Positions 4,176-64,000 are shown, numbered from the stretch's first letter. The stretch is 64,000 nt of DNA from a virus (IMGVR_UViG_3300027973_000059:2345-66344); one strand, 5' to 3'. The notes: generated from the sequence alone by a model not told the origin. Made by a program: numbers and translations.

Positions 4176-4536
4176 ATGTTATAACATTTGTCAAGTTATA
4201 ACTTTACTTATTTGCGTAGTACTACTACTAACATTTAACATATTTTGTTACAAATACCTATAAATCAGTAGCATATTTGCCCTAATTCCATTACAACATT
4301 TTACATATTGTACCTAAAACATTGTACAATGTTCACGAATACGTGAAAGTTTGCTTTTTGTGAACAATGAGTAGTATTACTACCAATTTATGTAACTTAA
4401 TCACACTTTTTAGTACGAATAAATGTTCCCAATTTGGTTACAAAAGTTCGCTAATAGTAAACTTTATCAATCATAAAAGTTACCCAATAAGGCAACTTTG
4501 AGCCGTAAATGACCAATAATCGGCTCATGTTTGAGC
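4176..4536. repeat. array of non-identical palindromes
   Basis: ATGTTATAACAT, AAGTTATAACTT, GTAGTACTAC, AACATTGTACAATGTT, TTCACG-N4-CGTGAA, GTAGTA-T-TACTAC and others. Confidence 0.75.
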
Positions 4537-4539
4537 GAT

Positions 4540-4570
4540 AAAAAACCCCATGTCATTCTAAAACATGGGG
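4540..4570 (-). terminator. rho-independent terminator
   Basis: CCCCATGT-N9-ACATGGGG followed by TTTTTT on the minus strand. Confidence 0.75.
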
Positions 4571-4610
4571 CTGAAACTACAAACTATGATAACCACCGTA
4601 AAAATATAAA

Positions 4611-5156
4611 TTATTTTTCAATAAATTTCTTTTTTACCAAGTTTAGCTTTGCCCTATATTCTAGAATTAAGCCCTTTAGCTCATCTTTTGTAGGTTTTAC
4701 TGTTTGCCTAGCTGTTTCTCTTAAATAATCAACTACAGCATTATTTTCTTCGTGTAATTTGTATTCAAACTCTTCTATATTACCAGTTTTAAAGTAATTA
4801 CATTCCATACATTGTGGTCTGCAATTTTGTTCTAACCATCTAGTGCTTAAATTTGACCTACCCATAAAATGACCGCATTGTATTTCTGCAATAGTGTGTT
4901 TTTTACCACAAGTATAACATTCAACAATACCTGTTTTATCTGCATATCTATTTCTAATGTACTGGCTAAATACATGGTCAAGGTCTTGGACAAGATTTTG
5001 AAAACTTTCTGTATCATCTTCAAATTCTTCTAATCTTTTTTGCGTAGAGTGTACGGTGGCGCATTGTTTACACATCTTTTTTGAAAACCAATAATCAATA
5101 TTGCCACAATTAACACAACGCTTTTTCTTTGTTATTATTGTACTGTTATATGCCAT
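4611..5156 (-). CDS. ninG: NinG/Rap-like recombination endonuclease
   Basis: LDHVFSQYIR, CYTCG, QCGHF, RW...NCRPQC..CN..K.GN. Confidence 0.8.
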   Translation of the reverse strand: MAYNSTIITKKKRCVNCGNIDYWFSKKMCKQCATVHSTQKRLEEFEDDTESFQNLVQDLDHVFSQYIRNRYADKTGIVECYTCGKKHTIAEIQCGHFMGRSNLSTRWLEQNCRPQCMECNYFKTGNIEEFEYKLHEENNAVVDYLRETARQTVKPTKDELKGLILEYRAKLNLVKKKFIEK

Positions 5157-5436
5157 GTATTCTAAATTTTAAATGTATATTATCTTCATCCATCATGCTA
5201 TTACAAACATCTATAGCCATTTTATAGTAAATCTCTTTTGGTATATTATTCTTTTTAGCCATTTCTTCAACTTTGCAAATATCTGGTCTATTATCATAAA
5301 CGCTACACATATTATTTATAAGCATTTTACAAGCTCCGTCTTCATCAACATCAAATGGAAACTCATCATATGTGAGAAATTTTTTTATTAATCCAACTCT
5401 TTTACAACAACATCCACAATTAGTGCAGGGGAACAT
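5146..5436 (-). CDS. YkgJ-family cysteine cluster protein
   Basis: CxxCGxCC...C...CSVYDNRPDIC. Confidence 0.8.
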   Translation of the reverse strand: MFPCTNCGCCCKRVGLIKKFLTYDEFPFDVDEDGACKMLINNMCSVYDNRPDICKVEEMAKKNNIPKEIYYKMAIDVCNSMMDEDNIHLKFRIHGI

Positions 5437-5675
5437 TTTTTTATTTTATTTCTTTCTTGATTTTTAATTACTGTTTTATCTAATTTTTCTTGACCTTTTT
5501 TACTAGTGTATAACATTTGTATATCAAAGTAAAAATCTTTTTTATCATCTTTCGTTAAATCAGGATGATTTCTTATCCTGTGCATTATTTCATCTTCTGT
5601 TATCCATCTTTCCATTATTTTATTTTTTTTGTTTATTTTTAATCCATCCATTTCCCGTGTTTTCTTAAATGCCAA
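5388..5675 (-). CDS. hypothetical protein
   Basis: ORF track; start uncertain. Confidence 0.5.
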   Translation of the reverse strand: MAFKKTREMDGLKINKKNKIMERWITEDEIMHRIRNHPDLTKDDKKDFYFDIQMLYTSKKGQEKLDKTVIKNQERNKIKKCSPALIVDVVVKELD

Positions 5676-5776
5676 AATCTATGCTTTATTACTTCAATAA
5701 TAATACCCATTAAAGTATTAGCTTCATAAGTTCCTTCATTAATTATTAATTTCATAAGTTATTTGTTTTAGTTAGG

Positions 5777-5860
5777 CAAAGCTAATTAATTAAATTAAAT
5801 AAATAAAAAATATTTTTCAAAAAATAAATTTTGTAATTAAAAATAAAGTTCATTACTTTG
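5777..5860. promoter_or_regulatory. divergent promoters for recombination (-) and replication (+) operons
   Basis: TAGCTTTG (-, 5777-5784); TTTG at about 5830 plus TTACTTTG (+, 5853-5860). Confidence 0.55.
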
Positions 5861-5879
5861 CTACTCAATCAAATTATTT

Positions 5880-6077
5880 ATGAAAAACTCAAATGTAAAA
5901 GACGAGATTCTTCTCTATCTTGAACAAGAAGAACGACCGCTAGCTTGGCTTTCAAGAAAAACAGAAATCCCATACCCTACGCTTTATTCAATTTTTATTC
6001 AGAGGATAATGAATCTGTCTGATACAAATTTAGCAAAGATAAATAGAGCAATGGACACTGATTTTATTAATGATTAA
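5880..6077 (+). CDS. Cro/XRE-like HTH regulator
   Basis: LAWLSRKTEIPYPTLYSI helix-turn-helix pattern. Confidence 0.7.
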   Translation: MKNSNVKDEILLYLEQEERPLAWLSRKTEIPYPTLYSIFIQRIMNLSDTNLAKINRAMDTDFIND

Positions 6078-6086
6078 TTTAAGAAA

Positions 6087-6830
6087 ATGGCTAAGAGATT
6101 TACTGATACTGAAAAGTGGAAAAAACCTTTTATAAGGGGCTTACAAGGGGCTTATAAGCTCCTTTGGCTATATATTTGTGATGATTGTGACCATGCAGGG
6201 GTATGGCAAGTTGATATTGATGTAGCGCAGATAAGAATAGGAGAAAAAATTGATTTAAAAGAGGCTATTAAAAGTTTTGATGAAAAGATTATAATTTTTG
6301 ATAAGGGGAATAAATGGTTTATACCTTCTTTTATTGAATTTCAATACCCTTCTGGTTTAAATCCAGACAATAGAGCGCATAATAGTATAATCATATTGCT
6401 TGAAAAAAATAATTTGCTAGATAAACAAAATAAGCCCCTTACAAGGCCCTTACAAGGGCGTAAGGATATGGATATGGTTAAGGATATGGATATGGATATG
6501 GTTAAAGGGACAAAAAAAATTAAAATTTCATTTATTGGGGAAGAAATTATACAATATTGGGATTTATGGAAAGATTACAAAAGCAAACAATTTAAATTTA
6601 ATTATAAAACAGTTCAAAGCGAGCAAGCTGCATTTGATGATTTAGTTAGGCTGTCTGAAAAAAATTGTGAAAATGCTATTGAAATTATAAAACAATCTAT
6701 GGCAAATGGGTGGAAAGGGCTATTTGAGCTTAAAATAAGCCAAAATAAGCCACTTTCTCGAAGAATTGATAATAAGTATCAAAACGAATTAGAAACCGCT
6801 AGAAACGCCTTTAAACCAATTTCTGAATAA
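6087..6830 (+). CDS. replication initiator-like protein
   Basis: MAKRFTDTEKW...LWLYICDDCDHAG N-terminus, low-complexity linker, C-terminal SMANGWKGLF; lies upstream of the helicase. Confidence 0.7.
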   Translation: MAKRFTDTEKWKKPFIRGLQGAYKLLWLYICDDCDHAGVWQVDIDVAQIRIGEKIDLKEAIKSFDEKIIIFDKGNKWFIPSFIEFQYPSGLNPDNRAHNSIIILLEKNNLLDKQNKPLTRPLQGRKDMDMVKDMDMDMVKGTKKIKISFIGEEIIQYWDLWKDYKSKQFKFNYKTVQSEQAAFDDLVRLSEKNCENAIEIIKQSMANGWKGLFELKISQNKPLSRRIDNKYQNELETARNAFKPISE

Positions 6831-8689
6831 TGATAACAATTTTTAAAAACATTTTTTCTAAGGAACCAAATTACATTTCTGTTGAAGCCGCGTTAAAAAG
6901 AATACAAGAAGGTAAAAGTAAATCAACTGTATCTGAAATCAGAGGAACAATTGATAAAGAAAAAGCAAATAAGATTAAACTTAACCTTCCTTCGGTTTGT
7001 TTTAGTGGTAAATTTGGTCCCGATAGAACGGATGCTCAGTTAATTACGCATAGTGGTTACATAGTTTTGGATTTTGACAATGTATTTGAGCTTAGGGATA
7101 AGCAAAATGAGATTATATCAAATCAATTTGTTTATGCTTGCTGGATTAGCCCTTCTGGTAACGGATTAAAAGCTTTGGTAAAAGTAGCAAATGGGGTAAA
7201 ACATAGAGAACATTTTCAAGCATTACAAGAAGTGTTTCCAGAGATTGACCGAAGCGGAATTAACCAAAGTAGAGTTTGTTATGAAAGCTATGACCCTGAA
7301 ATTTACATAAATGACAAGGCTGAGGTTTTTAAGAAGATTAAAAAAACTGAAAAGGTTGTTATTTATGAGAAAAACGATGATGACCAAAAGATATTTAAGA
7401 ATGTTTTGACTTGGTTATCTAATAAAAATGAGGCTTTTGTTACAGGAGAAAGGAATAATTTTATATTTAAATTAGCTTCAGCTTGTTGTCGTTTTGGTAT
7501 TAATGAAACCGCAGCAAATTCTATGATTCATATGGAGTTTATAACCAATTCGGAGTTCACAAAAAGCGAAGCAGATAGAGCAATACGCTCGGCATACAAG
7601 GCTAATTCAAAAAACTTTGGAAGTGCATCATTTGATAAAGAAATATTAGTTGATAAAGTTTCTAGAAAGGAAATTGAAGTTGAAAAAGCCGTATTTGATG
7701 AAGGGTTAAAGTTAAAAGATGTTATTTATGGTATTGATGTAAAAGAGCAAGCTTTGAGAATTTATGATGAAGGCTATGCAAAAGTAGATGGAATTGGCGT
7801 ACCCGATTTAGATGATAAATTTAAACCAAAGAGAGGGGAGATTACAGTTCTTACTGGTATTGGTAACTATGGTAAATCTTCGTTTAAAAAGTGGTATCAA
7901 GCAATGCGTATAATGTTGTACGGAGAAAAGTTTGCTACATTTTCACCAGAAGATAATCCACCTGAAGAATACTACCATGACTTTGTAGAGATTATTTTAG
8001 GATGTGATTGTAGTCCTGCAAATCCACATAGACCATCTAAGCAAGTTTATGAATATGTTTACGATTTAGTGTGCAAGCATATATTTTATGTTTATCCTAA
8101 AGATGTATCGCCTACTCCACAATATGTGATGGAAGTGTTTTTAGAATTAATTGTAAAAGAGAATGTAGATGGCGTAGATATTGACCCATTCAATCAGTTA
8201 ACAAATGAATATCAAAAGTTTTCAAGGAGTGATAAATATCTTGAGTGGGTATTGTCTGTATTCTCAAGATTTGCACAGATAAATAATATTTTCTTTTGGA
8301 TAATTGCTCACCCTGTTAAAATGATTAAAGCTTCTGATGGTAACTATCCATGTCCAGATGTGTTTGATTTGACTGATGGCGCAATGTGGAACAATAAGTT
8401 AGATAATATTCTTGTATATCATAGACCTTTTGCACAAACAGACCCTAGCAATCCGTCTTGTGAATTTCATAGTAAAAAGATTAGAAGACAAAAGATTGTT
8501 GGTAAAAAAGGGTTTATTTTATTTCAAATGTATTTTCAAACAAGAAGATTTTTATTTAATGGATTAGATTCTTTGCAGAAAATAATTAATGATAAGAATA
8601 TAGTTTTAAGACCTGATGCGTCAGTTCAAAAAACATTTGATAATTGGGTGCCTTACAAAGATGATAATGGAACAGAAATTAATTTTTAA
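6830..8689 (+). CDS. BT4734/VirE-N primase + PriCT + DnaB/Twinkle-like helicase fusion
   Basis: LPSVCFSG, LDFD, SPSGNGLK, GERNN, Walker A TGIGNYGKSS, IDPFNQL, AHP. Confidence 0.85.
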   Translation: MITIFKNIFSKEPNYISVEAALKRIQEGKSKSTVSEIRGTIDKEKANKIKLNLPSVCFSGKFGPDRTDAQLITHSGYIVLDFDNVFELRDKQNEIISNQFVYACWISPSGNGLKALVKVANGVKHREHFQALQEVFPEIDRSGINQSRVCYESYDPEIYINDKAEVFKKIKKTEKVVIYEKNDDDQKIFKNVLTWLSNKNEAFVTGERNNFIFKLASACCRFGINETAANSMIHMEFITNSEFTKSEADRAIRSAYKANSKNFGSASFDKEILVDKVSRKEIEVEKAVFDEGLKLKDVIYGIDVKEQALRIYDEGYAKVDGIGVPDLDDKFKPKRGEITVLTGIGNYGKSSFKKWYQAMRIMLYGEKFATFSPEDNPPEEYYHDFVEIILGCDCSPANPHRPSKQVYEYVYDLVCKHIFYVYPKDVSPTPQYVMEVFLELIVKENVDGVDIDPFNQLTNEYQKFSRSDKYLEWVLSVFSRFAQINNIFFWIIAHPVKMIKASDGNYPCPDVFDLTDGAMWNNKLDNILVYHRPFAQTDPSNPSCEFHSKKIRRQKIVGKKGFILFQMYFQTRRFLFNGLDSLQKIINDKNIVLRPDASVQKTFDNWVPYKDDNGTEINF

Positions 8690-8706
8690 TAATAAAACAA
8701 AACACA

Positions 8707-9045
8707 ATGATTAGAATTTCAGTAATCGGAAGATTAGGACAAGATGCAACAGTAAACAATGTAAATGAAAAAACAGTAATTAATTTTTCAATGGCTTACA
8801 GCGAAAAGTTTAAAAACCAACAAGGACAAGAGGTAGATAAAACAACTTGGGTTTCTTGCGCTTACTGGACTGACAAAACCAACGTAGCCAACTATCTTAA
8901 AAAAGGTACTTTGATTTACATGGAAGGGAAGCCAGAGGCAAAAACATATTTGAATGATAAGACCAAAGAAACAGTGGCTCAACTCCATGCTAGGGTTACA
9001 AGCTTGCAATTATTATCTAGCAAATTAGATGAAAACCAAATTTAA
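8707..9045 (+). CDS. ssb: single-stranded DNA-binding protein
   Basis: IGRLGQD, TTWVSC, YLKKGTLIYMEG. Confidence 0.9.
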   Translation: MIRISVIGRLGQDATVNNVNEKTVINFSMAYSEKFKNQQGQEVDKTTWVSCAYWTDKTNVANYLKKGTLIYMEGKPEAKTYLNDKTKETVAQLHARVTSLQLLSSKLDENQI

Positions 9046-9388: not shown

Positions 9389-9518
9389 AATAAATATATG
9401 AATAATAAAGCCGCAAAAAAACTAAGAAGATTAGCAATTGCTATTGCCGCAGCTAATGGTAAAATTGAAGACTCTGAAAGAATCTACAAGAATTTAAAAA
9501 CAGTGCATAAAGAAAATA

Positions 9519-9545
9519 AAAAAAGCCCCTAATGAAAGGGGCTAA
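9519..9545. terminator. terminator between convergent genes
   Basis: AAAAAAGCCCCT-AATGAA-AGGGGCT hairpin; T run on the minus strand. Confidence 0.65.
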
Positions 9546-9549
9546 TTTA

Positions 9550-9795
9550 CTAAGCATTTGCTGCTGTAAGAACTTGGTTAACTGTAGAAGTTACAATTAA
9601 TTGTACACTTCTTTGGTTTAAACCAGTTGGAGGAAGAGTAATTACAGAGTTAGCAGTAGCTCCATTAACAGGGTTTGCGCCTGTGTAAGGAACAACTACA
9701 ATACCTTGAGATGGGATAGCGCATACTACACCACCCGATGTTGCTGTTGCGTATTGGTTTCTTTGTAAAACCGTTACTGCGAAAATGTTTGCCAT
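9550..9795 (-). CDS. small protein, possible virion decoration protein
   Basis: Own TATATTTG promoter (9839-9846, -) and terminator; A/T/V/N-rich. Confidence 0.6.
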   Translation of the reverse strand: MANIFAVTVLQRNQYATATSGGVVCAIPSQGIVVVPYTGANPVNGATANSVITLPPTGLNQRSVQLIVTSTVNQVLTAANA

Positions 9796-11608: not shown

Positions 11609-13641
11609 ATGGAGGTTCAGAAATTGATATTCAATGGGTTAAGTGTCAATTACCACCAGAAGGATATGTATATAATATTCTTACTAAAAAAATTGAGTTC
11701 AGAGGTATTTATAAAATATCAGACAAAAAAGAAGAGCAATATTGGAAAAGGATTCCTATGCCAAGCTGGTACAAAGATGTTACGAAAGCTTGGGATGATT
11801 ATGATAAAAAAAAGAAAGATGATGATTCTGAATTTTATGATGAACAATTAGAAAATTATAAAAAACAAGAATGGGACAGAAGGCTTAATGGATTTTGGTA
11901 TTATAATAATGGCATTCCAACATATTTAACCGGAATGCATTATTTGTATTTACAATTTTGGTCAATTGATATTGGTTATCCAAAGTTTAGGATACCAGAT
12001 TTAGAGAAGTTCTATTTTATGGAATATTGTATTCAAGACCCGTTATGTATGGGTATGCTTGAGGTAACTAAAAGAAGGTTTGGTAAGTCATTTGTGGCTG
12101 GTTTATTTGTAACCGAATACACTACAAGGACAAAGATGACAAACGGCGGTATTCAGTCTAAAACAGGCTCTGATGCTAAAAAATTCTTTGCCAAGACAGT
12201 GGTTAATCCATTTAGACGATTACCTAAGTTTTTTAGACCAGAATATGATATGTCTTTGGGGGTAAATCCAAAGTCTGAGATGAGATTCCAAAAGACAAAC
12301 GTAAGAGGTAAGAAGGCAGAGGATAATGTAGATAAAGACGAATTAGGTTCAGTTATTGACCATCAATCAGCAGATACTGTTGCCTATGATGGACAAAAGC
12401 TCCATAGATATGTAGCAGACGAGTGCGGTAAAACCACAGAGGTTAATGTGTATGACAGACACGAGGTTGTGCGTTATTGTTTGCTAGATGATGAAGGACA
12501 AATTATTGGTAAAGCATTATATACCACTACAGTAGAGAAACTTACAACTGAAAAGGATGGCGTTCAAGATGCCTTTAAATTATTATGGGAAGAAAGTAAT
12601 CAAGAAAAACGACAAGATAATGGAACTACTTCTAGCGGTCTTTATCGATTCTTCATGTCTGCAAAGCGTACAAGAAATTTTGACGATTTTGGGTTTCCAG
12701 ATGAAGAAAAAACTTTGGCTCAAATTTCAGCCGACAGGGACACAGTAAAAAATAATCAAAGAGCATTATCTGCTCGTATTAGAAAAGAGCCTCTTACAAT
12801 AGACGAAGCTTTTAGTACAGATTCAGATAAGTGTATTTTTAATGTAATGAACATTGGAGCAAGAGAGTCTTATTTAAAAGAAAACCCTAAACTCAAGCGC
12901 CATATCATATTTTATAGAGATATTGACCAAATAGTTAGATGGAGAGAAATAAATGATAAAGAAGAAGATTTTCATTGGGTTATAACTCAGTTCCCACAGG
13001 CGGGCGAAGAAAACAAACATACCTACGATGTAAAAACTAGAAAGCCAGCTAGGGTATCTGATGGCGCAATAGCAATTGATGGTTATAGTAATAGTCAAGG
13101 TGGTAAGTATGGTTCAAAAGCTTCAGCTTGGATAGGGAGGAGATACGATTTATTAAAACCAGAAGATACTGGGAAAGCCATAGGTCATCTTTACGGCAGG
13201 CCTCAAATTAAAGAAACATTGCACGAGCAAGTACTTTTAGCAGCTGAATTTTATGGGTATCAAGCTTGGTATGAGCATAATAGTGATGATTATTTGTCAT
13301 ATTTTAGAGATAGGGGTAGGGTTGGCTATCTTGGTTCATACCCGCTTTCAACAATTGACCCAGCAAAAAGAGAAACAGCTGATAGACACAAAGGATTTCC
13401 TACTACACCGTTTAGCTTGACAAAACAAACCGATGTGGGTATTATGTATTTTGAATCACATATTGATTCAATAGATTTTGAAAATTTGTTAGAAGATGCA
13501 AAAAAATTCGACCCAAACAATAGAACAGACTATGATATTACCGTATCTTTTTTGATGTTAATTGTATGTTTAATGGAACCGGTCCAAAAACAAATCAAGA
13601 GAGAAGCGCTTGTAAAAAGTTATGTTCCTGTGTTTAATTAA
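11593..13641 (+). CDS. terL: terminase large subunit
   Basis: KRRFGKS Walker A, YVADECGK Walker B, C-terminal nuclease acidic residues; precedes portal. Confidence 0.85.
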   Translation: MYRKIDGGSEIDIQWVKCQLPPEGYVYNILTKKIEFRGIYKISDKKEEQYWKRIPMPSWYKDVTKAWDDYDKKKKDDDSEFYDEQLENYKKQEWDRRLNGFWYYNNGIPTYLTGMHYLYLQFWSIDIGYPKFRIPDLEKFYFMEYCIQDPLCMGMLEVTKRRFGKSFVAGLFVTEYTTRTKMTNGGIQSKTGSDAKKFFAKTVVNPFRRLPKFFRPEYDMSLGVNPKSEMRFQKTNVRGKKAEDNVDKDELGSVIDHQSADTVAYDGQKLHRYVADECGKTTEVNVYDRHEVVRYCLLDDEGQIIGKALYTTTVEKLTTEKDGVQDAFKLLWEESNQEKRQDNGTTSSGLYRFFMSAKRTRNFDDFGFPDEEKTLAQISADRDTVKNNQRALSARIRKEPLTIDEAFSTDSDKCIFNVMNIGARESYLKENPKLKRHIIFYRDIDQIVRWREINDKEEDFHWVITQFPQAGEENKHTYDVKTRKPARVSDGAIAIDGYSNSQGGKYGSKASAWIGRRYDLLKPEDTGKAIGHLYGRPQIKETLHEQVLLAAEFYGYQAWYEHNSDDYLSYFRDRGRVGYLGSYPLSTIDPAKRETADRHKGFPTTPFSLTKQTDVGIMYFESHIDSIDFENLLEDAKKFDPNNRTDYDITVSFLMLIVCLMEPVQKQIKREALVKSYVPVFN

Positions 13642-53938: not shown

Positions 53939-54091
53939 GAGCGTATCGAGTATATTTCAAAAAAAACGGCATAAACCTAACTAAATTGGTCTATGCCGAG
54001 TCTTTGCTTGAGGTTCTCAATCAATTTAAAAACATGGAAGTAGTAATGATAAAAGAATTAGACTTGCTTCCGGAAGGCGATATAGATGTTA

Positions 54092-57014: not shown

Positions 57015-57070
57015 GGTTAATACGGGCTATAAATAACCCGTTTCAAGGATTCACCTATCATCAGTTAACC
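57015..57070 (-). ncRNA. hammerhead ribozyme type I (variant stem II base)
   Basis: GGUUAA-CUGAUGA-UAGG UGAAU CCUU-GAAA-CGGGUUAU UU AUAGCCCG-UA^UUAACC. Confidence 0.8.
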
Positions 57071-57273
57071 TAATCTAAAATGAATCTAATAATTAATGTG
57101 TCATTGTTAAATACATTAATATTCAACATTCGTTCAAATCTTCTAATGTCAATTGGTTTTATTTCTTGCCTAATAGATTCTGCTATAAAGTCTTCATCAC
57201 TGCAAGTTAAACAATTGAAATTATCATCCATTTTATCAACGTCTATTGAATAGACTTTAATTGAATTTATCAT
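57070..57273 (-). CDS. hypothetical protein
   Basis: TAG stop overlaps hammerhead stem I. Confidence 0.6.
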   Translation of the reverse strand: MINSIKVYSIDVDKMDDNFNCLTCSDEDFIAESIRQEIKPIDIRRFERMLNINVFNNDTLIIRFILD

Positions 57274-57274
57274 T

Positions 57275-57658
57275 TTATCTAATTTTAAAATTTGTAAATT
57301 GTTTATCTAATTCAAATGCATTCATCCATGGGACATTGATAGGTTCCACTCCAAAGTAATTTATAGGATTACCTAGAATCTCACATTCATCAATACCATC
57401 TATTTGTTGGGTGCAATATTCTCTGACATCATCTTTACCCCAAGTAAGCAAATATCCAATACCCCATATCTCGCAATAGGGTTCATCATTTGCACTTTCT
57501 TGATGAAAGTTAACATCTAGTTTAGTTCCATCTTTAAGTTCAAATCCATGCCAAAAATCACCTGTGTCACCGGCATTTAAATCAAACATAAAGATATGGT
57601 CTTGATAATGCAAAGTCAATACTTTGTTATCATAATCAACTACGAATTTGTTTTCCAT
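57275..57658 (-). CDS. hypothetical protein
   Basis: ORF in early operon. Confidence 0.65.
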   Translation of the reverse strand: MENKFVVDYDNKVLTLHYQDHIFMFDLNAGDTGDFWHGFELKDGTKLDVNFHQESANDEPYCEIWGIGYLLTWGKDDVREYCTQQIDGIDECEILGNPINYFGVEPINVPWMNAFELDKQFTNFKIR

Positions 57659-57669
57659 GATTTTTAATT

Positions 57670-57933
57670 TTAAAATATTAAAGATTGTTCGTTATAAAAT
57701 GGTTTGTAATCATCCATAAAAGCCTCAAATTTTAGCTTATCATTTAAGGTGGTACATTCTATTACATACTTATCATGTAGCCTTAATTCGTCTTTAATTG
57801 CATCATGCAAATATGCTGTTTGTTTTTTATCACATTCATTTGCTAGCATCTTAAATAATTCATCTGCATCAAATTCTTCTAGAATTCTAGCAATCCAATT
57901 TTCTAATACTTCAGTAGGTATTTTGTTTTTCAT
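57670..57933 (-). CDS. hypothetical protein
   Basis: ORF in early operon. Confidence 0.65.
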   Translation of the reverse strand: MKNKIPTEVLENWIARILEEFDADELFKMLANECDKKQTAYLHDAIKDELRLHDKYVIECTTLNDKLKFEAFMDDYKPFYNEQSLIF

Positions 57934-57943
57934 TTTGTTTAAT

Positions 57944-58216
57944 TTAAAATCGTTTATAATATTTATTGAATCTTTTTTTTGTTTGCATATACCAAGTTTT
58001 ATCCTCGGTAGATTTTATAATTACCCAATATAAAAATTTACAATAGCATTCACCATCACCTTCATGATAATCAGATGCAGTGAATCTACCTTTATGTCCA
58101 TCGTAATGAAGACCACAATAAGGTGCAGTTTCGTAATCGTAATTTTTAATATAATCTAGTCTATTATCTAGGTAATAAAATAGATTGTAAAGAGAGCGTA
58201 ATAAATAATTTTTCAT
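57944..58216 (-). CDS. hypothetical protein
   Basis: ORF in early operon. Confidence 0.6.
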   Translation of the reverse strand: MKNYLLRSLYNLFYYLDNRLDYIKNYDYETAPYCGLHYDGHKGRFTASDYHEGDGECYCKFLYWVIIKSTEDKTWYMQTKKRFNKYYKRF

Positions 58217-58221
58217 TTTGT

Positions 58222-58419
58222 TTAAATTTTATTAAGTTCAAAAATTAAATCACAAGCGGATAACTTTGGCAAATTGTGAAGCTCACAATAAGCTAAATAA
58301 AGAACATTTGCCCCATCTATCCAATCATCATTTTTAAATGTTTCACTTGCTTTATACCATGCCTCCATAAATCCTTTTAAGAATGCTAAATGCTCGCTTT
58401 GTGTTTGTGCGTTTTTCAT
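58222..58419 (-). CDS. hypothetical protein
   Basis: ORF in early operon. Confidence 0.6.
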   Translation of the reverse strand: MKNAQTQSEHLAFLKGFMEAWYKASETFKNDDWIDGANVLYLAYCELHNLPKLSACDLIFELNKI

Positions 58420-58452
58420 TGTGTGTTTGTTTAAAGGTTATTTGTTTAATAA

Positions 58453-58710
58453 TTATACTGCGATAGTCCAATCAGTAACTTCAAAACTTACATTTGAACT
58501 AACCGAATATCCTTTTGCTCTTAATCTACTTGCCACCACAGGCATATAGGTAAATTCTTCTACCGACCACCCAAAGGCGGGCGCTCTATAACAAGTTTCA
58601 AATCGGGTGTGCAACCTATCCCCTAATTGCTTGATAATTCGGTTTTCTAATTCAGTTAAAAAAAGTTCTTTCTTTTCTTGTGGTGTCATTGTTTGTGTTA
58701 ATGTTTGCAT
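58453..58710 (-). CDS. hypothetical protein
   Basis: ORF in early operon. Confidence 0.65.
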   Translation of the reverse strand: MQTLTQTMTPQEKKELFLTELENRIIKQLGDRLHTRFETCYRAPAFGWSVEEFTYMPVVASRLRAKGYSVSSNVSFEVTDWTIAV

Positions 58711-58727
58711 TTTGTTTAATTTATTAT

Positions 58728-58979
58728 TTAAAAATTTGTTTCATTTAATACAGCAATTCTTTCAACTTGAATATTCCAAGTTTCTAAATAAGCAAATAAA
58801 TATTCATCACTTTTTTGAATTTCGTTTTTAGAATAATCATTTGCCAATTCATCTATATCATACCACCTATCCCACATACTGGTTAGAATATAATTTCTCA
58901 ATCCTTTTAAGGTAAAAAACTTTGGAGGTTCAGCCAATTCATCTTTGTCAGTAATTTTGTAAACGATAATTTTTTTCAT
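58728..58979 (-). CDS. hypothetical protein
   Basis: Start re-placed at MKKIIVY (conserved initiation motif). Confidence 0.6.
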   Translation of the reverse strand: MKKIIVYKITDKDELAEPPKFFTLKGLRNYILTSMWDRWYDIDELANDYSKNEIQKSDEYLFAYLETWNIQVERIAVLNETNF

Positions 58980-58989
58980 TTTGTTTAAT

Positions 58990-59406
58990 TTAAAATTTGA
59001 TAAATTGATAATCGTATTCACCTTCATATGCTCCAATAAAAATTGAATCATCACCTAAATTTATTTCATCAAGTTCTTCGGGGTCTGATAATGTAATTGC
59101 GCCACAGATACGACTATGCCATTCCTTTTTGTTTAGGATTGGATGTACTTCATTTACATTGCAAAAAATCATTACACCATAAAGTTTTTCAGCATTACGA
59201 ATAAAAGTGAATGAACCTTGGTCTTCACCTTTCTCATAACTGATGCATCCTAAACTTGATTCAATATTCTCAGCACCCGTTTGAATTTGCACTAATGATT
59301 CTAAATAATTTTGTGCTTCTAAATCATTCTTAAATTTTCTTATGTAAGCTAGGTTTTCAGATGAATAACCTTCGCCATTCCATGTTTCTACAATTGCGTA
59401 TTTCAT
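58990..59406 (-). CDS. hypothetical protein
   Basis: Start re-placed at MKYAIVET (conserved initiation motif). Confidence 0.65.
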   Translation of the reverse strand: MKYAIVETWNGEGYSSENLAYIRKFKNDLEAQNYLESLVQIQTGAENIESSLGCISYEKGEDQGSFTFIRNAEKLYGVMIFCNVNEVHPILNKKEWHSRICGAITLSDPEELDEINLGDDSIFIGAYEGEYDYQFIKF

Positions 59407-59416
59407 TTTGTTTAAT

Positions 59417-59605
59417 TTAATTGTGACTAAATGCGATGCTTTGTACATAAATGCCTTTGCCCCAAAACTTTTCGTAAATTTTTTTAATTTTAAATTTGTC
59501 TTGGTTTGAATTTTTAAAAATTGGATTGTTTAACAAATCAATTTTTTCAGTTCTAAAAATTTCTCCGTTTGTTGATGTGATTTTTGCGAATCTGTAAGTT
59601 TTCAT
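59417..59605 (-). CDS. hypothetical protein
   Basis: First ORF after a hammerhead. Confidence 0.55.
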   Translation of the reverse strand: MKTYRFAKITSTNGEIFRTEKIDLLNNPIFKNSNQDKFKIKKIYEKFWGKGIYVQSIAFSHN

Positions 59606-59643
59606 TTTGTTTTTTCAGTTTTTAATGTGGTGCCTCCACAATT

Positions 59644-59694
59644 GATTAAGACCACCCGAAGGTGGTTTCGTCCATTAGGACTCGTCAGTTAACC
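59644..59694 (-). ncRNA. hammerhead ribozyme type I
   Basis: GGUUAA-CUGACGA-GUCC UAAU GGAC-GAAA-CCACC UUCG GGUGG-UC^UUAAUC; perfect core. Confidence 0.95.
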
Positions 59695-60602
59695 TAGATA
59701 ACATTAGCGTATACTGATTCAAATAACTTCTCATCTAGTGTACGTTGTTGGTCAAAAGTTTTTTTCAATTTGCCATGGATTAATTCATTGAATGCATTGT
59801 ATACTATCCATTGGTTTGGATTAGTATTAAGCAATCTAGTTTCACGCTCAACTACATCAAAGATGAAACGAGCATTTGCACTAGGCTCCGGATTCTTATC
59901 AGATGCCTCATATTTAAAAATACCTAGGTTCTTCGCAGTTACCTTAACATAATCCTCAAGATTGTAAACCGGACGCTCAGCAAGTACTTCAAATTTGCGC
60001 TTCAATGTAAAGAATTCGTTGTCCATAAATTGACTAACAATCGTATCCAATTTAGGCATAACAATATCAGCAATGGCACCCGAATGCTTAACAGAAAAAC
60101 CAATGTGAGTCTGTGCAACATGTAAGCCATTGTCACATACCTTGCGCCAAAAACCAAAGGAACCACTAGTCTTGCATGAACCATCATAAGAATTAACAAA
60201 GCGCAACATAGGACGCAGGATATCCTTATCACCTTTAACCTCTACTTTATAGCGGTCATCAGCTAGGATATAATCCACTACAAAAGAACGATTGTCGCGG
60301 TTAATACTACGCTGTTGGTAGTAGATGTCAGCGTCAATCAACTTTTCTTCCACGCCTAAAAAGAACTTCTCATTAGGCAGGTGGCCATAAGAATTAGAAA
60401 CCACATTCACGATTTGATTCTCGCAAATGATTGCATTCTCTAAACCTCTTCTAGAGCTTAATCCGGTCAATTCTTGCAATGGGACTACCTTGGACTCAAC
60501 CAAGACATTATCTTGTCTAGAATTGGCTAAAATGTGGCTTAGTTTTGATTCTGCTGAATCAATAGAATGCGCTGAGAAATTGTCGTTAAAAATACTTTTC
60601 AT
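59694..60602 (-). CDS. DUF932/DUF945-family protein
   Basis: VSNSY..LPN, NSYDGS, FWRKVCDNGL, KHSG, W.VYNA; start re-placed at MKSIFND. Confidence 0.75.
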   Translation of the reverse strand: MKSIFNDNFSAHSIDSAESKLSHILANSRQDNVLVESKVVPLQELTGLSSRRGLENAIICENQIVNVVSNSYGHLPNEKFFLGVEEKLIDADIYYQQRSINRDNRSFVVDYILADDRYKVEVKGDKDILRPMLRFVNSYDGSCKTSGSFGFWRKVCDNGLHVAQTHIGFSVKHSGAIADIVMPKLDTIVSQFMDNEFFTLKRKFEVLAERPVYNLEDYVKVTAKNLGIFKYEASDKNPEPSANARFIFDVVERETRLLNTNPNQWIVYNAFNELIHGKLKKTFDQQRTLDEKLFESVYANVI

Positions 60603-60641
60603 GATAATAGTGCAGTTTTTTATGTGGTGACTCCACATTAT

Positions 60642-60707
60642 GGTTAAGACGGGTAAGTGGGGGAACTTACTCCGTTTCGGCTATATCTAAGCCATCCTCA
60701 GTTAACC
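60642..60707 (-). ncRNA. hammerhead ribozyme type I (extra U after A9)
   Basis: GGUUAA-CUGAGGA-U-GGCU UAGAUAU AGCC-GAAA-CGG A GUAAGU UCCCC ACUUAC CCG-UC^UUAACC. Confidence 0.85.
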
Positions 60708-60710
60708 TCG

Positions 60711-60962
60711 TTACATCAATTCATATCCGTATACAATCTTACCATCTATAAACAATGGTGTGTATTCGCCATGACTAGCAACCATATCATCTAATTCATA
60801 GAAAGTGGTTGATTTTGCTATACCTAATTCATGACAAACGGCAATCACAGTTCCATCTCCTCCAAAAATTGGATGCTCATAAAATTCAATCAATTGCTTT
60901 TGATTGTTGACGATTTCACCATATTTAAATGGATTTAGGCTCATTAATTTTGAATAATTCAT
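60711..60962 (-). CDS. hypothetical protein
   Basis: ORF ending 3 nt before a hammerhead. Confidence 0.65.
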   Translation of the reverse strand: MNYSKLMSLNPFKYGEIVNNQKQLIEFYEHPIFGGDGTVIAVCHELGIAKSTTFYELDDMVASHGEYTPLFIDGKIVYGYELM

Positions 60963-60980
60963 TTTGTTTAGTTTAATATA

Positions 60981-61223
60981 TTATTTAATGGTAATAGGTT
61001 CAGAATAAAAGGCAAAAATCTCTCTAGAATAAGATGCGTAAGGGGTTTGCAATGCCTCTCCATTTTCTAGCATTTGTTCTATCTTTTTTTTCTTATAAAA
61101 GTTACTTAAAACTTTAATACCTTTTTCAATAGATAAGATTTCTAAATCTTTGGTAATGTTATCCTCTCTCATAATAACATAAATGGGCTTCGACATTTCT
61201 TTTTTGTTTTGTGTGTTTTTCAT
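60981..61223 (-). CDS. hypothetical protein
   Basis: ORF in early operon. Confidence 0.6.
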   Translation of the reverse strand: MKNTQNKKEMSKPIYVIMREDNITKDLEILSIEKGIKVLSNFYKKKKIEQMLENGEALQTPYASYSREIFAFYSEPITIK

Positions 61224-61228
61224 TTTGT

Positions 61229-61399
61229 TTAGTTTTGAAGGTTAAGTGAATTGATTTGAATACGAGCATTTAATAGCTTCCATTCATTGTAAGCAGATTT
61301 GAAATCTTTGCCTAATTGAATGTGAGCATTAATAAATTTCTCATAGCTAGATGGGGAACGTTTAATGCGTCTACCACTAGTAGTAAATACTTTTTGCAT
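61229..61399 (-). CDS. small protein (56 aa)
   Basis: Read manually: MQKVFTTSGRRIKRSPSSYEKF...; ATG about 20 nt after a hammerhead cut site. Confidence 0.6.
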   Translation of the reverse strand: MQKVFTTSGRRIKRSPSSYEKFINAHIQLGKDFKSAYNEWKLLNARIQINSLNLQN

Positions 61400-61413
61400 A
61401 ATAGTTTTTTTTT

Positions 61414-61462
61414 GGTTAAGACGCCCGCAGGCGTTTCGTCCATTAGGACTCGTCAGTTAACC
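61414..61462 (-). ncRNA. hammerhead ribozyme type I
   Basis: GGUUAA-CUGACGA-GUCC UAAU GGAC-GAAA-CGCC UGCG GGCG-UC^UUAACC; perfect core. Confidence 0.95.
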
Positions 61463-61686
61463 TACTTACATAATGTAATATTTATACCTTCCGCTTCACC
61501 TTCAAGCCATCCTCTGCCATTGTGAAATACTAGAGGTACATTCAATTTGTTAGCTACCTCAATTGAATCGGAGCTAATTTTTCCTTGAAGCATAATCCTA
61601 CCGCCAAACGCTGTTTCAATGCTTACTGCATAAAATAAATCTAAATCGATTTTTAAGGCGCTTAATTTTTTAAATAATTCATTCAT
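61462..61686 (-). CDS. hypothetical protein
   Basis: Start re-placed at MNELFKK; bracketed by two hammerheads. Confidence 0.65.
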   Translation of the reverse strand: MNELFKKLSALKIDLDLFYAVSIETAFGGRIMLQGKISSDSIEVANKLNVPLVFHNGRGWLEGEAEGINITLCK

Positions 61687-61701
61687 AATTGATAAATTTT
61701 T

Positions 61702-61763
61702 GGTTAATATGCACATCCTTTATGGATGCACATTTCGGCTAATTTAAGCCTCATCAGTTAACC
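61702..61763 (-). ncRNA. hammerhead ribozyme type I
   Basis: GGUUAA-CUGAUGA-GGCU UAAAUU AGCC-GAAA-UGUGCAUCC AUAAA GGAUGUGCA-UA^UUAACC. Confidence 0.9.
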
Positions 61764-61776
61764 TTGTTATTTGTAT

Positions 61777-62001
61777 TTATTTACCTTGAATTATTCTAAT
61801 TGCTTGTAATTTTTTATAATATTCATCCGCAATCATATAATGTACTTCTGCTTCATTTACATCATTTTGTTGACTAGCTTCTGCTTTCCATTTAAGATAT
61901 GCACTTACATATCTTGTTTCTAAATCATCCATTTGCAAAGCAGTTAATTCAATCATGTAGTTGCCATTACTTAATTTGGTTCCGTTAATTACTTGTGACA
62001 T
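61777..62001 (-). CDS. hypothetical protein, first gene of the early operon
   Basis: ORF between two hammerheads. Confidence 0.65.
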   Translation of the reverse strand: MSQVINGTKLSNGNYMIELTALQMDDLETRYVSAYLKWKAEASQQNDVNEAEVHYMIADEYYKKLQAIRIIQGK

Positions 62002-62014
62002 GTTATATAGTGTT

Positions 62015-62066
62015 AGGTTTCGCCATTCTGTGGCTCATCAGTACTGCGAATATTAGCAGTAGACCT
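62015..62066 (-). ncRNA. hammerhead ribozyme type III
   Basis: AGGUC^UACUGC UAAUAUUC GCAGUA-CUGAUGA-GCCA CAGAA UGGC-GAAACCU. Confidence 0.92.
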
Positions 62067-62403
62067 TATGGTCAGAAATTCAATATAAGTAAATTGGATA
62101 GGTGGGAGTCTTGATAACGATATTACATCGTGGCAGTGTCATTTGTGGGTTGCTCTCATTGTGTGAGGCATTGCCGTTGTCCATCTATAAGGCGGTGAAC
62201 CTTATCGCTTATATTTGCATCCTTTCAAGCTATCCCGTTGGCACCATGTGTATTGGAGTGAGTCGTTTAGGGCTATTCAGCCGACTGATTACATAGTCTA
62301 GAGGTAAGCAGTAAATTTGACCAAACTCAATGGTGGCGCGGGTTTTACTAGATATTTCAAAGAACGATGTTGCAACATTGATTGGGGGCTTTCCCCCGAT
62401 TGC
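62062..62403 (-). ncRNA. putative structured leader RNA (about 340 nt)
   Basis: GC-enriched, no credible ORF, several stems, boxA-like GUUCUUUGAAA. Confidence 0.5.
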
Positions 62404-62407
62404 ATAG

Positions 62408-62438
62408 CAAATATATACATATACTTTGATTCAGCAAA
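62408..62438 (-). promoter_or_regulatory. early-operon promoter
   Basis: TTTG-N19-TATATTTG on the minus strand. Confidence 0.75.
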
Positions 62439-62599
62439 ATAATTTAATATAATTATATAAATGTGGATAACTTTTAATTTAATTAATACATATACATAAG
62501 CCAATGCAAATGTGTCTATTTCGCATTTTAAGACGATTACAGACACTCAAAATGCTTTTGATGTCATAATATCAACAGCCCCAAAATAATTTAAATTTG

Positions 62600-62960
62600 A
62601 GCAAATTAGATTTTTTAATAATGCGTAACTCATTGACCAAACTAAATACCTTAGCATTACTAAATCTATTAGCAATCATGCATACCATACCAACCAATGC
62701 CACCAAGCTACAACCAATACCCCTGTATACCCTATCTATATACCCATACCATACAGCATAGAAAAGTGCATGACCCAACCCACACCCACGCCACCACCAA
62801 TACCATGACCATGACCATAGCCCATACCCCTCAAACTCACTGAAATCAACAACCTCAATCAATCAATGCATGGACCAAGAAACAAGACCTACCCGGTGCA
62901 GGAGAATCAAAGCCCCAAAAAAAAATCGCGGTCATTTATATATAGCGGACCCCTGAGGAA
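62600..62960. other. strand-skewed C/A-rich non-coding spacer
   Basis: G-poor runs such as CCCAACCCACACCCACGCCACCACCAATACCATGACCATGACCATAG. Confidence 0.65.
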
Positions 62961-63048
62961 GTGTTGATGTAGAACATTTCGGAATTATTTTTAATATATT
63001 TTGGTCATGGTGGAAAAAATATTTCGTATATTTGGTAAAATTTATATT

Positions 63049-63273
63049 ATGGCACTGGAGCAAATAACAACAGACATGGAAGTAATGGAACAACCAGCCC
63101 CAAAAGGCATGGTAAGAACCGAAATGGGACGCTTAGTTAAGAAAGCTGACCAAGATGCCTTTGAAAAGAAAAGTAGAGCCGCAATGCAGACGCAATTGAA
63201 AAGCAGAGGTGCTTCATCTTTAAAAGAAAAGAAAGTCGGATATGCTTTAAAAGCAATGAAAAAGAAAAAATAA
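63049..63273 (+). CDS. small basic protein
   Basis: Start MALEQ after TATATTTG (63027-63034). Confidence 0.65.
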   Translation: MALEQITTDMEVMEQPAPKGMVRTEMGRLVKKADQDAFEKKSRAAMQTQLKSRGASSLKEKKVGYALKAMKKKK

Positions 63274-63324
63274 TTATCCAATAGGAACAAAGATGGTTCG
63301 GTTGATGTTTTCTCGTTTGACTTA

Positions 63325-63351
63325 GCCTCCCTTAAAAAAGGAGGTTTTTTT
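63325..63351 (+). terminator. rho-independent terminator
   Basis: GCCTCCCTT-AAAA-AAGGAGGT-TTTTTT. Confidence 0.75.
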
Positions 63352-63410
63352 ATGTACATAAAGTTGTACAATGTTATAACATAATGTATCTTGCATCAAA
63401 GTGAATCATT

Positions 63411-63563
63411 ATGAAACGTACAACAATTTATCTAACTCCAGAAGTTCATGAGAAACTTATAAAACTGGCAGACAAAAAAAGATGGTCGGTAACTAAGACA
63501 GTAGAATTTATTCTGTTAAAAACTTTAAAAGATAAAACTAATGTCAAAGAAAGTAATTCTTAA
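63411..63563 (+). CDS. ribbon-helix-helix (Arc/CopG-like) DNA-binding protein (50 aa)
   Basis: Read manually: MKRTTIYLTPEVHEKLIKLADKKRWSVTKTVEFIL. Confidence 0.75.
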   Translation: MKRTTIYLTPEVHEKLIKLADKKRWSVTKTVEFILLKTLKDKTNVKESNS

Positions 63564-63999
63564 CATAACACCCCAGACCCATGTAAGAGCAACACAAGGG
63601 GACCGTATATTCTTTAGAATTCCAAGGGAAAGGCTAAGACCACCCGGACTAAAAAGATTGCTTAGATTAGAAAAATATAATCAGTACAAAATTGATTTGT
63701 CAGCAGAAGCAAAAATAAAAAACTTTGTGATGCCTCCGGTAGGTGCTTCCATAACTTTCTTTATACCAGTTCCACCCTCTTGGTCAAAGAAAAAAAAGAA
63801 ATTACATCATGGACGATTTCACCAATCAACTCCGGATTTAAATAATTTGACAAAAGCTTTTGAAGATGGTTTACTTGCAGAAGACAAACAATTAGCACAC
63901 TACGAGCTTTCTAAAAGATGGGTTGATTTTGAAATAGGATGGATTGAAGTTTCCTACAAAGACTACGAAGAAGTTCTTAGCCTACCAACGCAAAAATAA
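63541..63999 (+). CDS. rusA: RusA-like Holliday junction resolvase
   Basis: FFIPVPPSWSKKKK, TPDLNNLTKAFEDGL...ED. Confidence 0.75.
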   Translation: MSKKVILNITPQTHVRATQGDRIFFRIPRERLRPPGLKRLLRLEKYNQYKIDLSAEAKIKNFVMPPVGASITFFIPVPPSWSKKKKKLHHGRFHQSTPDLNNLTKAFEDGLLAEDKQLAHYELSKRWVDFEIGWIEVSYKDYEEVLSLPTQK

Positions 64000-64000
64000 C

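Follow-up and report, generated by a model that had tools for sequence, protein, structure and literature searches.

Six hammerhead ribozymes, one of type III and five of type I, are strongly supported by the sequence of a 64-kb stretch of phage DNA, termed here the window, from the virus record IMGVR_UViG_3300027973_000059. They are found on the minus strand, numbered HH1 to HH6 in the order in which they would be transcribed, and lie at gene boundaries in the first 5 kb of a putative leftward operon. The central proposal, to which a probability of about 0.7 is given, is that the six are functional and self-cleave one leftward operon transcript into gene-sized messenger RNAs (mRNAs). Self-cleavage of a long transcript is the most economical reading of the arrangement. 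Cleavage would presumably take place in vivo and may uncouple the stability and translation of neighbouring genes.

The assignment to the hammerhead class is based on the core sequence, the stems, a shuffle control, covariance models, homologues in other phages and compensatory base changes. With these lines of evidence the six copies are regarded as real hammerheads and are very probably active. The processing proposal is based on the presence of one upstream promoter candidate, on the lack of any other consensus promoter or convincing terminator among the ribozymes, and on the strictly intergenic position of the elements.

Sequence, structure and conservation of the ribozymes

All six elements contain the hammerhead core, comprising CUGANGA, GAAA, the A15.1-U16.1 pair and UC or UA at the cleavage site. 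All display three helices in a type I or type III topology, with a stem I of 6 bp, a stem II of 3-4 bp and a stem III of 4-10 bp (Table 1). An earlier note, made from the sequence alone, had described six elements with core and three stems on the minus strand, and their positions are confirmed here, with the qualification that HH4 has an extra U and HH6 a weak stem II. A relaxed core pattern (CTGANGA-N6-40-GAAA) occurs six times on the minus strand of the window, and these occurrences are the six elements; the six plus-strand occurrences have no stems. A strict descriptor (uninterrupted stems I, II and III of at least 4, 3 and 3 bp, the A15.1-U16.1 pair, and H17 not G) was applied to both strands of the 64 kb and detected HH1, HH2, HH3 and HH5, with no other match. 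The same descriptor found 12 matches in total in 500 dinucleotide shuffles, or 0.024 per window. A relaxed scan added HH4 to the strict four.

A covariance model, R1, was built from 33 type I sequences consisting of IMG/VR matches and the copies of relatives, and including HH3 and HH5. An unfiltered R1 search of the window recovers precisely the five type I copies, with E-values of 2e-14 to 8e-7. HH3 and HH5, which are in the training set, score 66.4 and 65.9 bits; HH2, HH6 and HH4, which are outside it, score 51.5, 51.2 and 36.2 bits. The next-best window match, at 12.5 bits, is the core of the type III copy. A type III model, R2, scores HH1 at 67.9 bits, HH1 being part of its training set.

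The Rfam models Hammerhead_1 and Hammerhead_3, which the earlier note had put forward as a check, give a divided result. At gathering cut-offs there are no matches in the window. In E-value mode four of the six copies are listed, all below cut-off: HH1 with Hammerhead_3 (35.8 bits against 48.5, E 5e-4) and three copies with Hammerhead_1 (31.5 bits for HH3, then 23.1 and 20.3, against 34). HH4 and HH6 are unlisted even in this mode. In the Hammerhead_1 alignments the long stem III is misaligned or taken as an insertion, which is probably the reason for the low scores. A gathering score is a curation threshold and no biological feature. Since none of the six copies passes the Rfam cut-offs, members of this phage subfamily are under-reported by routine annotation. 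Other ribozyme classes, including twister, pistol and hatchet, were searched for with Rfam at E up to 10, and none was found in the window. Weak 22-bit matches to RAGATH-1-hammerhead just overlap HH2 and HH3 and were discarded.

Two copies deviate from the consensus. HH4 has the extra U between A9 and stem II, as well as a bulged A in stem III; the extra U is also common among homologues in relatives. In HH6, stem II consists of 3 bp flanked by U and U, which can alternatively be read as an HH4-like extra U or as a U-U closing pair. The minimum-energy fold is the hammerhead junction in four of the six isolated elements, and isolated HH4 RNA favours an alternative fold by 2 kcal/mol. When 30-60 nt of flanking sequence are included, the active fold of HH2, HH3 and HH4 is the minimum or within ~1 kcal/mol of it.

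Homologues were found in two ways. A pattern consisting of the stem I 5′ strand, the core and GAAA matched at least 119 stretches in IMG/VR, many of them expected by chance, and among the matches listed 61 of 119 form a complete hammerhead by descriptor. In addition, 13 related loci were retrieved from IMG/VR with the DUF932 protein encoded between HH4 and HH5 (67-97% identity). R1 finds 34 matches in these 13 loci, all on the gene strand, with at least one and up to five per locus. The earlier note had suggested a search of related phages for the same arrangement. Type III copies are found with R2 in the window and in three of the 13 relatives. Individual homologues were assigned for HH1 (loci L131, L134 and L135), HH2 (L126, 967-1027), HH4 (L126, L127 and L138) and HH6 (L126, 4705-4760, and L131, 5715-5770); those of HH6 display compensatory changes in stem III.

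The stems covary. In the type I alignment (n=33), 99.2% of cells are paired and double changes are found at 12 of 16 pairs; in the type III alignment (n=8), 99.2% are paired and 11 of 16 pairs are compensatory, the percentages being inflated in that the sequences were chosen by a scanner that demands pairing, which leaves the diversity of pair types per position unaffected. None of 500 shuffles attains a covariation score as high as that of the type I alignment, and slid controls are 25-42% paired. Compensatory changes are present in all three stems.

Stem I is constant, in contrast to the freely varying stems II and III. Each of the five type I copies of the window has the stem I strands GGUUAA/UUAACC, which are parts of the palindrome GGUUAACC, with one G-U pair in HH5. 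The same stem I is found in the 34 matches of the relatives, save in the two most distant loci, where it is GUGUAA/UUACAC. In more distant phages stem I covaries, with the forms GAUUAA/UUAAUC, GUGUAA/UUACAC, GUUAUA/UAUAAC and GGUCUA/UAGAUC. With regard to a tertiary contact between stems I and II, which in hammerheads permits fast cleavage at physiological Mg2+, the type I copies mostly have U-N-A-A-U in loop II, and the 6-bp stem I is followed by A in 97 of 99 cases.

Six copies in 5 kb had been called unusual. Full-record searches with R1 reveal five and four type I copies in two close relatives, three in another record and one in Cellulophaga phage phi19:3. A still denser array than the one described here, of nine type I copies on a single strand, occupies 4.3 kb (4448-8718) of the record containing locus L019, which is an unrelated IMG/VR phage of 51 kb. 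Because of the four to five copies of the relatives and the nine of the unrelated record, the claim fails within this phage group, and the present array is dense yet unexceptional. A rule that the type III copy always heads the array was also considered and rejected; it stands first in seven of eight loci that have both types, two scanner matches of 95-100 nt (L065 and L094) being left out of the count as spurious. This is a tendency only, and L126, the closest relative, starts with a type I copy.

The hammerhead of phi19:3 is of type I and is unannotated. It is located at 12003-12051 of locus L139 (NC_021789.1, 21769-21817, minus strand), scores 49.6 bits with R1 and belongs to the same subfamily as the window copies. 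It overlaps the end of gp051, and gp050 begins 28 nt beyond it. Phage phi19:3 represents a cultured carrier of the related motif.

Table 1. Ribozymes and other features of the window; cut sites are predicted
Feature	Position	Strand	Details
HH1, type III	62015..62066	-	cut after C62062 (GUC); stems I 6, II 4, III 4 bp; next ATG 62001
HH2, type I	61702..61763	-	cut after A61708 (AUA); stems I 6, II 4, III 10 bp; next in-frame ATG 61686
HH3, type I	61414..61462	-	cut after C61420 (GUC); ATG 61399
HH4, type I variant	60642..60707	-	cut after C60648; found by relaxed scan
HH5, type I	59644..59694	-	cut after C59650; one G-U pair in stem I
HH6, type I, weakest copy	57015..57070	-	cut after A57021 (GUA); ATG 57001
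Candidate Bacteroidetes-type promoter	62408..62438	-	TTTG 62438-62435, 19-nt spacer, TATATTTG 62415-62408
Leader, predicted start to HH1	62067..62400	-	about 335 nt; poorly conserved in relatives
Small hairpin	60623..60637	-	GUGG-AGUCA-CCAC, then AUAAAAAACUG; between HH4 and DUF932 start 60602
Small hairpin, second copy	59626..59640	-	GUGG-AGGCA-CCAC, then AUAAAAAACUG; between HH5 and ATG 59605
DUF932-family gene	59694..60602	-	Pfam DUF932 E 4e-15; phrog_21518 E 1e-106
Terminator-like hairpin	53959..53997	-	10-bp stem, 10-nt loop, then G and eight T; read from sequence
Inverted terminal repeat, right copy	62706..64000	.	perfect, 1,295 bp; partner copy genome 1-1295 (L125)

A leftward operon and its proposed processing

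Small open reading frames run on the minus strand from ~62000 to 54092. They are best explained as one leftward operon of ~8.4 kb, bounded by a promoter near 62410 and a terminator-like hairpin near 53960 and beginning about 270 nt inward of the inverted terminal repeat. Early expression is suggested by the position at the genome end and by the small orphan genes. The promoter candidate consists of TTTG, a 19-nt spacer and TATATTTG, which presumably fits the Bacteroidetes promoter consensus. No other minus-strand TAnnTTTG is found in 57591-62700, and the sole further minus-strand consensus −7 box among the ribozymes, at 57583-57590, is intragenic. Transcription is predicted to start near 62401 and is followed by a 5′ hairpin, GGGGG-AAAG-CCCCC, at 62397-62384. 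Similarity of the leader to L126 ends near 62386 and that to L131 near 62316. The leader also contains a 34-codon open reading frame (62184-62080, minus strand) that ends 13 nt ahead of HH1.

A consensus scan detected no convincing terminator from the promoter candidate down to the terminal hairpin; its one minus-strand terminator-like match among the ribozymes (60429-60404) is inside the DUF932 gene. The hairpin at 53959-53997 is the probable end of the operon and is unlisted by the scan, which permits loops of up to 8 nt. A sigma-70 promoter scan, with 47 matches observed and 54 expected, was uninformative.

Hammerhead cleavage produces a 2′,3′-cyclic phosphate on the upstream fragment and a 5′-OH on the downstream one. 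In the proposed mechanism each ribozyme would fold and cut its own backbone while the operon is being transcribed. The primary transcript would yield a leader of ~340 nt, pieces of 354, 288, 772, 998 and 2629 nt and a distal piece of ~3 kb; the cut sites predicted in the earlier note hold, and the five fragment lengths follow from them. A type I ribozyme would remain as the folded 3′ end of the upstream message. The downstream message would begin with a 5′-OH, UUAACC and an A-rich leader of ~19-21 nt, or of 44-45 nt if it includes a small conserved hairpin. HH1, as a type III copy, would remove the leader and stay with the first message as its structured 5′ end. From HH1 to HH6, the cut-to-ATG leaders are 60, 21, 20, 45 (9 if ATG 60638 is used), 44 and 19 nt, and the gaps between the ribozyme end and the ATG are 13, 15, 14, 39 (3 with ATG 60638), 38 and 13 nt. 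Successive hammerheads bound 1, 1, 3, 1 and 9 open reading frames.

The placement of type I copies relative to genes was studied in 103 distinct contexts, with the next ATG taken from open reading frames of at least 35 codons. A same-strand frame runs through the ribozyme in two of the 103. The upstream stop codon lies within the ribozyme 5′ strand in 56, either as TAG ending on G1 (18), TAA at nucleotides 4-6 of GGUUAAC (22) or TGA at nucleotides 8-10, in CUGA (16). The next ATG is located 12-21 nt past the ribozyme 3′ end in 73 of the 103, most commonly at 13 nt (22) or 16 nt (17). The window obeys these rules. In HH3, HH5 and HH6 the last letter of the upstream TAG is also the first G of stem I, and the earlier note was right in its claim of an overlap in three copies. 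The long gaps that follow HH4 and HH5 hold the small hairpin. Such rules turn the notion of mRNA processing into concrete predictions on transcript ends, stability and translation.

The small hairpin motif is present in two exact copies against 0.15 expected. It recurs in relatives before the DUF932 gene and the next gene, and its stem covaries to GGUG/CACC in L129 and L130. It may bind a protein or stabilise the 5′ end. A hammerhead is found directly ahead of the DUF932 gene in all nine mapped loci; titles and abstracts of the literature searched state no function for DUF932. One of the ribozyme sites can also be replaced. In relatives represented by DNA contigs of runs X6 and X8, the segment 58994-59694, comprising HH5 and two genes, is swapped for 40 letters, which on the minus strand form a G+C-rich hairpin and a T-run right after the DUF932 stop. 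This interchange of HH5 with a terminator-like hairpin fits a role of the ribozyme in defining mRNA 3′ ends.

RNA run X24 contains eight short contigs that align at 57669-58191, 59774-60629, 60949-60985, 61196-61230 and 61777-61952. None is at least 99% alike, which indicates that they are from relatives and not from this phage. The contigs carry no ends, strand or level and are therefore uninformative on cleavage, and gaps in their coverage prove nothing.

Several observations weigh against processing as proposed, in addition to the inflated pairing percentages mentioned above. No copy attains the curated cut-offs of Rfam (RF00163 and RF00008). HH4 combines a core insertion with a competing fold, and HH6 has a stem II of 3 bp. 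With 30-60 nt of flanks, the active folds of HH1, HH5 and HH6 lie 2.7-8 kcal/mol above the minimum, that of HH6 by about 8 kcal/mol. Stem I is merely 6 AU-rich bp. A pseudoknot between loop II and a flank, which could stabilise stem I, was sought as Watson-Crick covariation at both flanks and none was found; complementarity was 3.25 and 3.54 in observed pairs against 3.24 and 3.50 in permuted ones, and the pseudoknot was dropped. With a stop codon in stem I, the 5′ half of the ribozyme would lie under terminating ribosomes. Most junctions of the operon are also free of ribozymes, for example among the nine open reading frames between HH5 and HH6, which means that processing is not generally required for expression.

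The position of the stop codons leads to a different view of real ribozymes, in which cleavage is conditional. Ribosomes on the upstream stop would mask the 5′ half and cutting would occur mainly when translation is sparse, such that the ribozymes would shut the operon down, as switches that sense translation or as points of entry for decay, as opposed to serving constitutive maturation. This is thought unlikely. The 56 of 103 contexts with a stop within the 5′ strand and the competing folds of HH1, HH5 and HH6 once flanked are consistent with it, and Perreault et al. (2011; PMC3088659) raise regulated cleavage for phage hammerheads. However, space economy explains the compaction of stop and ribozyme equally well, the 3′ strand of a type I copy emerges ~50 nt behind the stop, which would allow folding before the first ribosome or between ribosomes, and no sign of regulation was detected in this analysis. 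Lower still stands the idea that the hammerheads mainly serve as boundary modules between gene cassettes, either as recombination linkers or as selfish passengers; their short conserved sequences amid variable small genes would favour cassette exchange between related phages, with cleavage secondary. In comparison with L126, five of nine similarity-block ends in the operon are at most 7 nt from a hammerhead edge. In the X6 and X8 relatives the gene between HH1 and HH2 is swapped for 281 other letters, with junctions at the HH1 3′ end and within HH2, and the map of nine loci reveals small gene families that shift between ribozyme-bounded slots while the hammerhead-DUF932 pair stays constant. 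Purifying selection on a ribozyme amid fast-changing genes would nevertheless yield the same block ends, and an invariant core with compensatory changes in all stems argues for selection on RNA function and not on DNA homology.

The shared palindromic stem I GGUUAACC could also serve in ligation, since any excised piece can base-pair, through its 5′ end, with the ribozyme that terminates it or another piece, which would make the five type I copies interchangeable. Cleavage followed by hammerhead ligation would then produce circular or re-joined mRNAs, and if this were true there would be exonuclease-resistant circular phage mRNAs or a shuffling of gene cassettes at the RNA level. The proposal is quite improbable. 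The reverse reaction is established chemistry, according to a review (PMC6765202), and the uniform stem I, found in all five type I copies and in all matches of the relatives outside the two most distant loci, would permit it. Against this, Perreault et al. detected neither circles nor spliced RNAs when they looked for such products of prophage arrays (PMC3088659), and stem I is mismatched within other arrays, with three different versions in L055 and two each in L029 and L036, so that stem I compatibility is no general property. Built-in TAA or TAG stops and a tertiary contact with the conserved loop II are simpler causes of stem I conservation. That the elements are chance look-alikes or decayed, inactive relics is scarcely credible: all six are under the Rfam gathering scores and HH4 and HH6 deviate from the consensus, but four strict matches compare with 0.024 expected per shuffled window, and the copies are on one strand, intergenic and conserved with compensatory changes across 13 related loci. 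Self-cleavage of one leftward transcript by six functional hammerheads is retained as the preferred reading.

The phage record and its genome context

The host record is a 66,344-bp IMG/VR virus that is rated complete by CheckV, and the window represents its last 64 kb. PHROG matches to primase/helicase, large terminase, portal, virion structural and tail-fibre proteins point to a tailed phage. The GC content of the window is 32.5%. Metagenome DNA runs that contain the phage sequence are of freshwater, river and lake origin. The sole nucleotide similarity to cultured phages in INPHARED is a 66-nt match to the DUF932 genes of Flavobacterium psychrophilum phages. The virus can be described as a tailed freshwater phage of 66 kb. 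Its promoter and the contexts of its start codons resemble those of Bacteroidota, which suggests the host.

Long inverted terminal repeats, as opposed to direct ones, are uncommon among tailed phages, and an assembly artefact is also possible. The record of the closest relative is likewise classed as having inverted terminal repeats. A gene for a RusA-like resolvase is located within the 1,295-bp repeat (63541-63999, Pfam E 2e-10).

A 13-kb contig binned with Candidatus Taylorbacteria (L140, CAIMDI010000011.1) encodes a DUF932 protein 91% identical to that of the window. The contig probably derives from a related phage and was mis-binned. At 9518-9645 of the window (minus strand) there is a weak Rfam match to TarA, with 25.6 bits against a cut-off of 80. 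The score stems from a terminator-like hairpin with a U-run, and the assignment to TarA RNA was rejected.

Comparison with known systems

The window elements share the core and the three-helix junction of the Rfam families Hammerhead_1 (RF00163) and Hammerhead_3 (RF00008), and four of the six were aligned with them over the full length. A different form of intergenic cutting is known from phage T7, where host RNase III cuts double-stranded stems at intergenic sites of the early mRNA and the retained hairpins stabilise 3′ ends. Both systems would cut early polycistronic transcripts between genes; in the system proposed here the RNA would cut itself, leaving a 5′-OH and a cyclic phosphate. The elements are three-way junctions with a hammerhead core and not the long perfect hairpins of RNase III sites, and the resemblance to T7 is functional only.

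The nearest precedent is found in prophages. Perreault et al. (2011) had already proposed the processing idea, and of triple prophage arrays they report cleavage of three in vitro and of one in E. coli (PMC3088659). The earlier note had read the window as a phage that cuts its own transcript; the hammerhead identity is strongly supported and the layout fits processing, but novelty was overstated in view of this precedent. The interpretation is reasonable, and its general form is already published. As in the prophage clusters, the window combines hammerheads of mixed type, all in one orientation, that border individual genes or short runs of small, non-conserved genes (PMC3088659). A clustered array, in the sense of two or more hammerheads on one strand of phage DNA flanking genes, is present in the window, with all six copies on the minus strand. 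The prophage clusters are triple and are found in Clostridium, Azorhizobium and Agrobacterium prophages. In contrast, the window has six copies in 5 kb with one shared stem I, beside a terminal repeat of an uncultivated and apparently complete linear phage, although Figure 3 or the supplements of PMC3088659 may hold larger arrays or members of the present subfamily. Hammerhead arrays in Flavobacteriia or in freshwater phages were not found in the literature searched, and the same supplements could hold them. Nor did that literature contain the rule of a stop in stem I, the fixed ATG spacing, the constant DUF932 link or the terminator swap, on which the 2011 supplements may also bear.

Two viral hammerheads next to start codons provide further parallels. 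In the haloviruses HF1 and HF2, a hammerhead is located 13 nt ahead of the first early gene, with the 5′ end of a transcript mapped to within 3 nt of the cut (PMC3088659). These are also linear double-stranded DNA viruses with an early polycistronic transcript, and HH1 and HH6 likewise end 13 nt before an ATG, which is the commonest spacing. The HF1/HF2 element differs in that it stands alone, has an unusual insertion in its core and belongs to an archaeal virus, whereas the window has six with consensus or near-consensus cores. In the fusarivirus PtFV1 a type I hammerhead is found in a short intergenic untranslated region and cuts 7 nt before the start of an open reading frame, the 5′ end having been confirmed by RACE (rapid amplification of cDNA ends) (NAR 2026, PMC13725137). 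The type, the intergenic position and the cut shortly before the next start codon are shared with the window copies. PtFV1 is a eukaryotic RNA virus with a single site, which is tied to subgenomic RNA and translation initiation in fungi (PMC13725137).

Reviews describe phage hammerheads as lying close together and flanking small non-conserved open reading frames, and they call the role open (PMC6155905; PMC6765202). The phage group described here, with its similar arrangement, represents a clean natural system in which the role of bacterial and phage hammerheads can be addressed.

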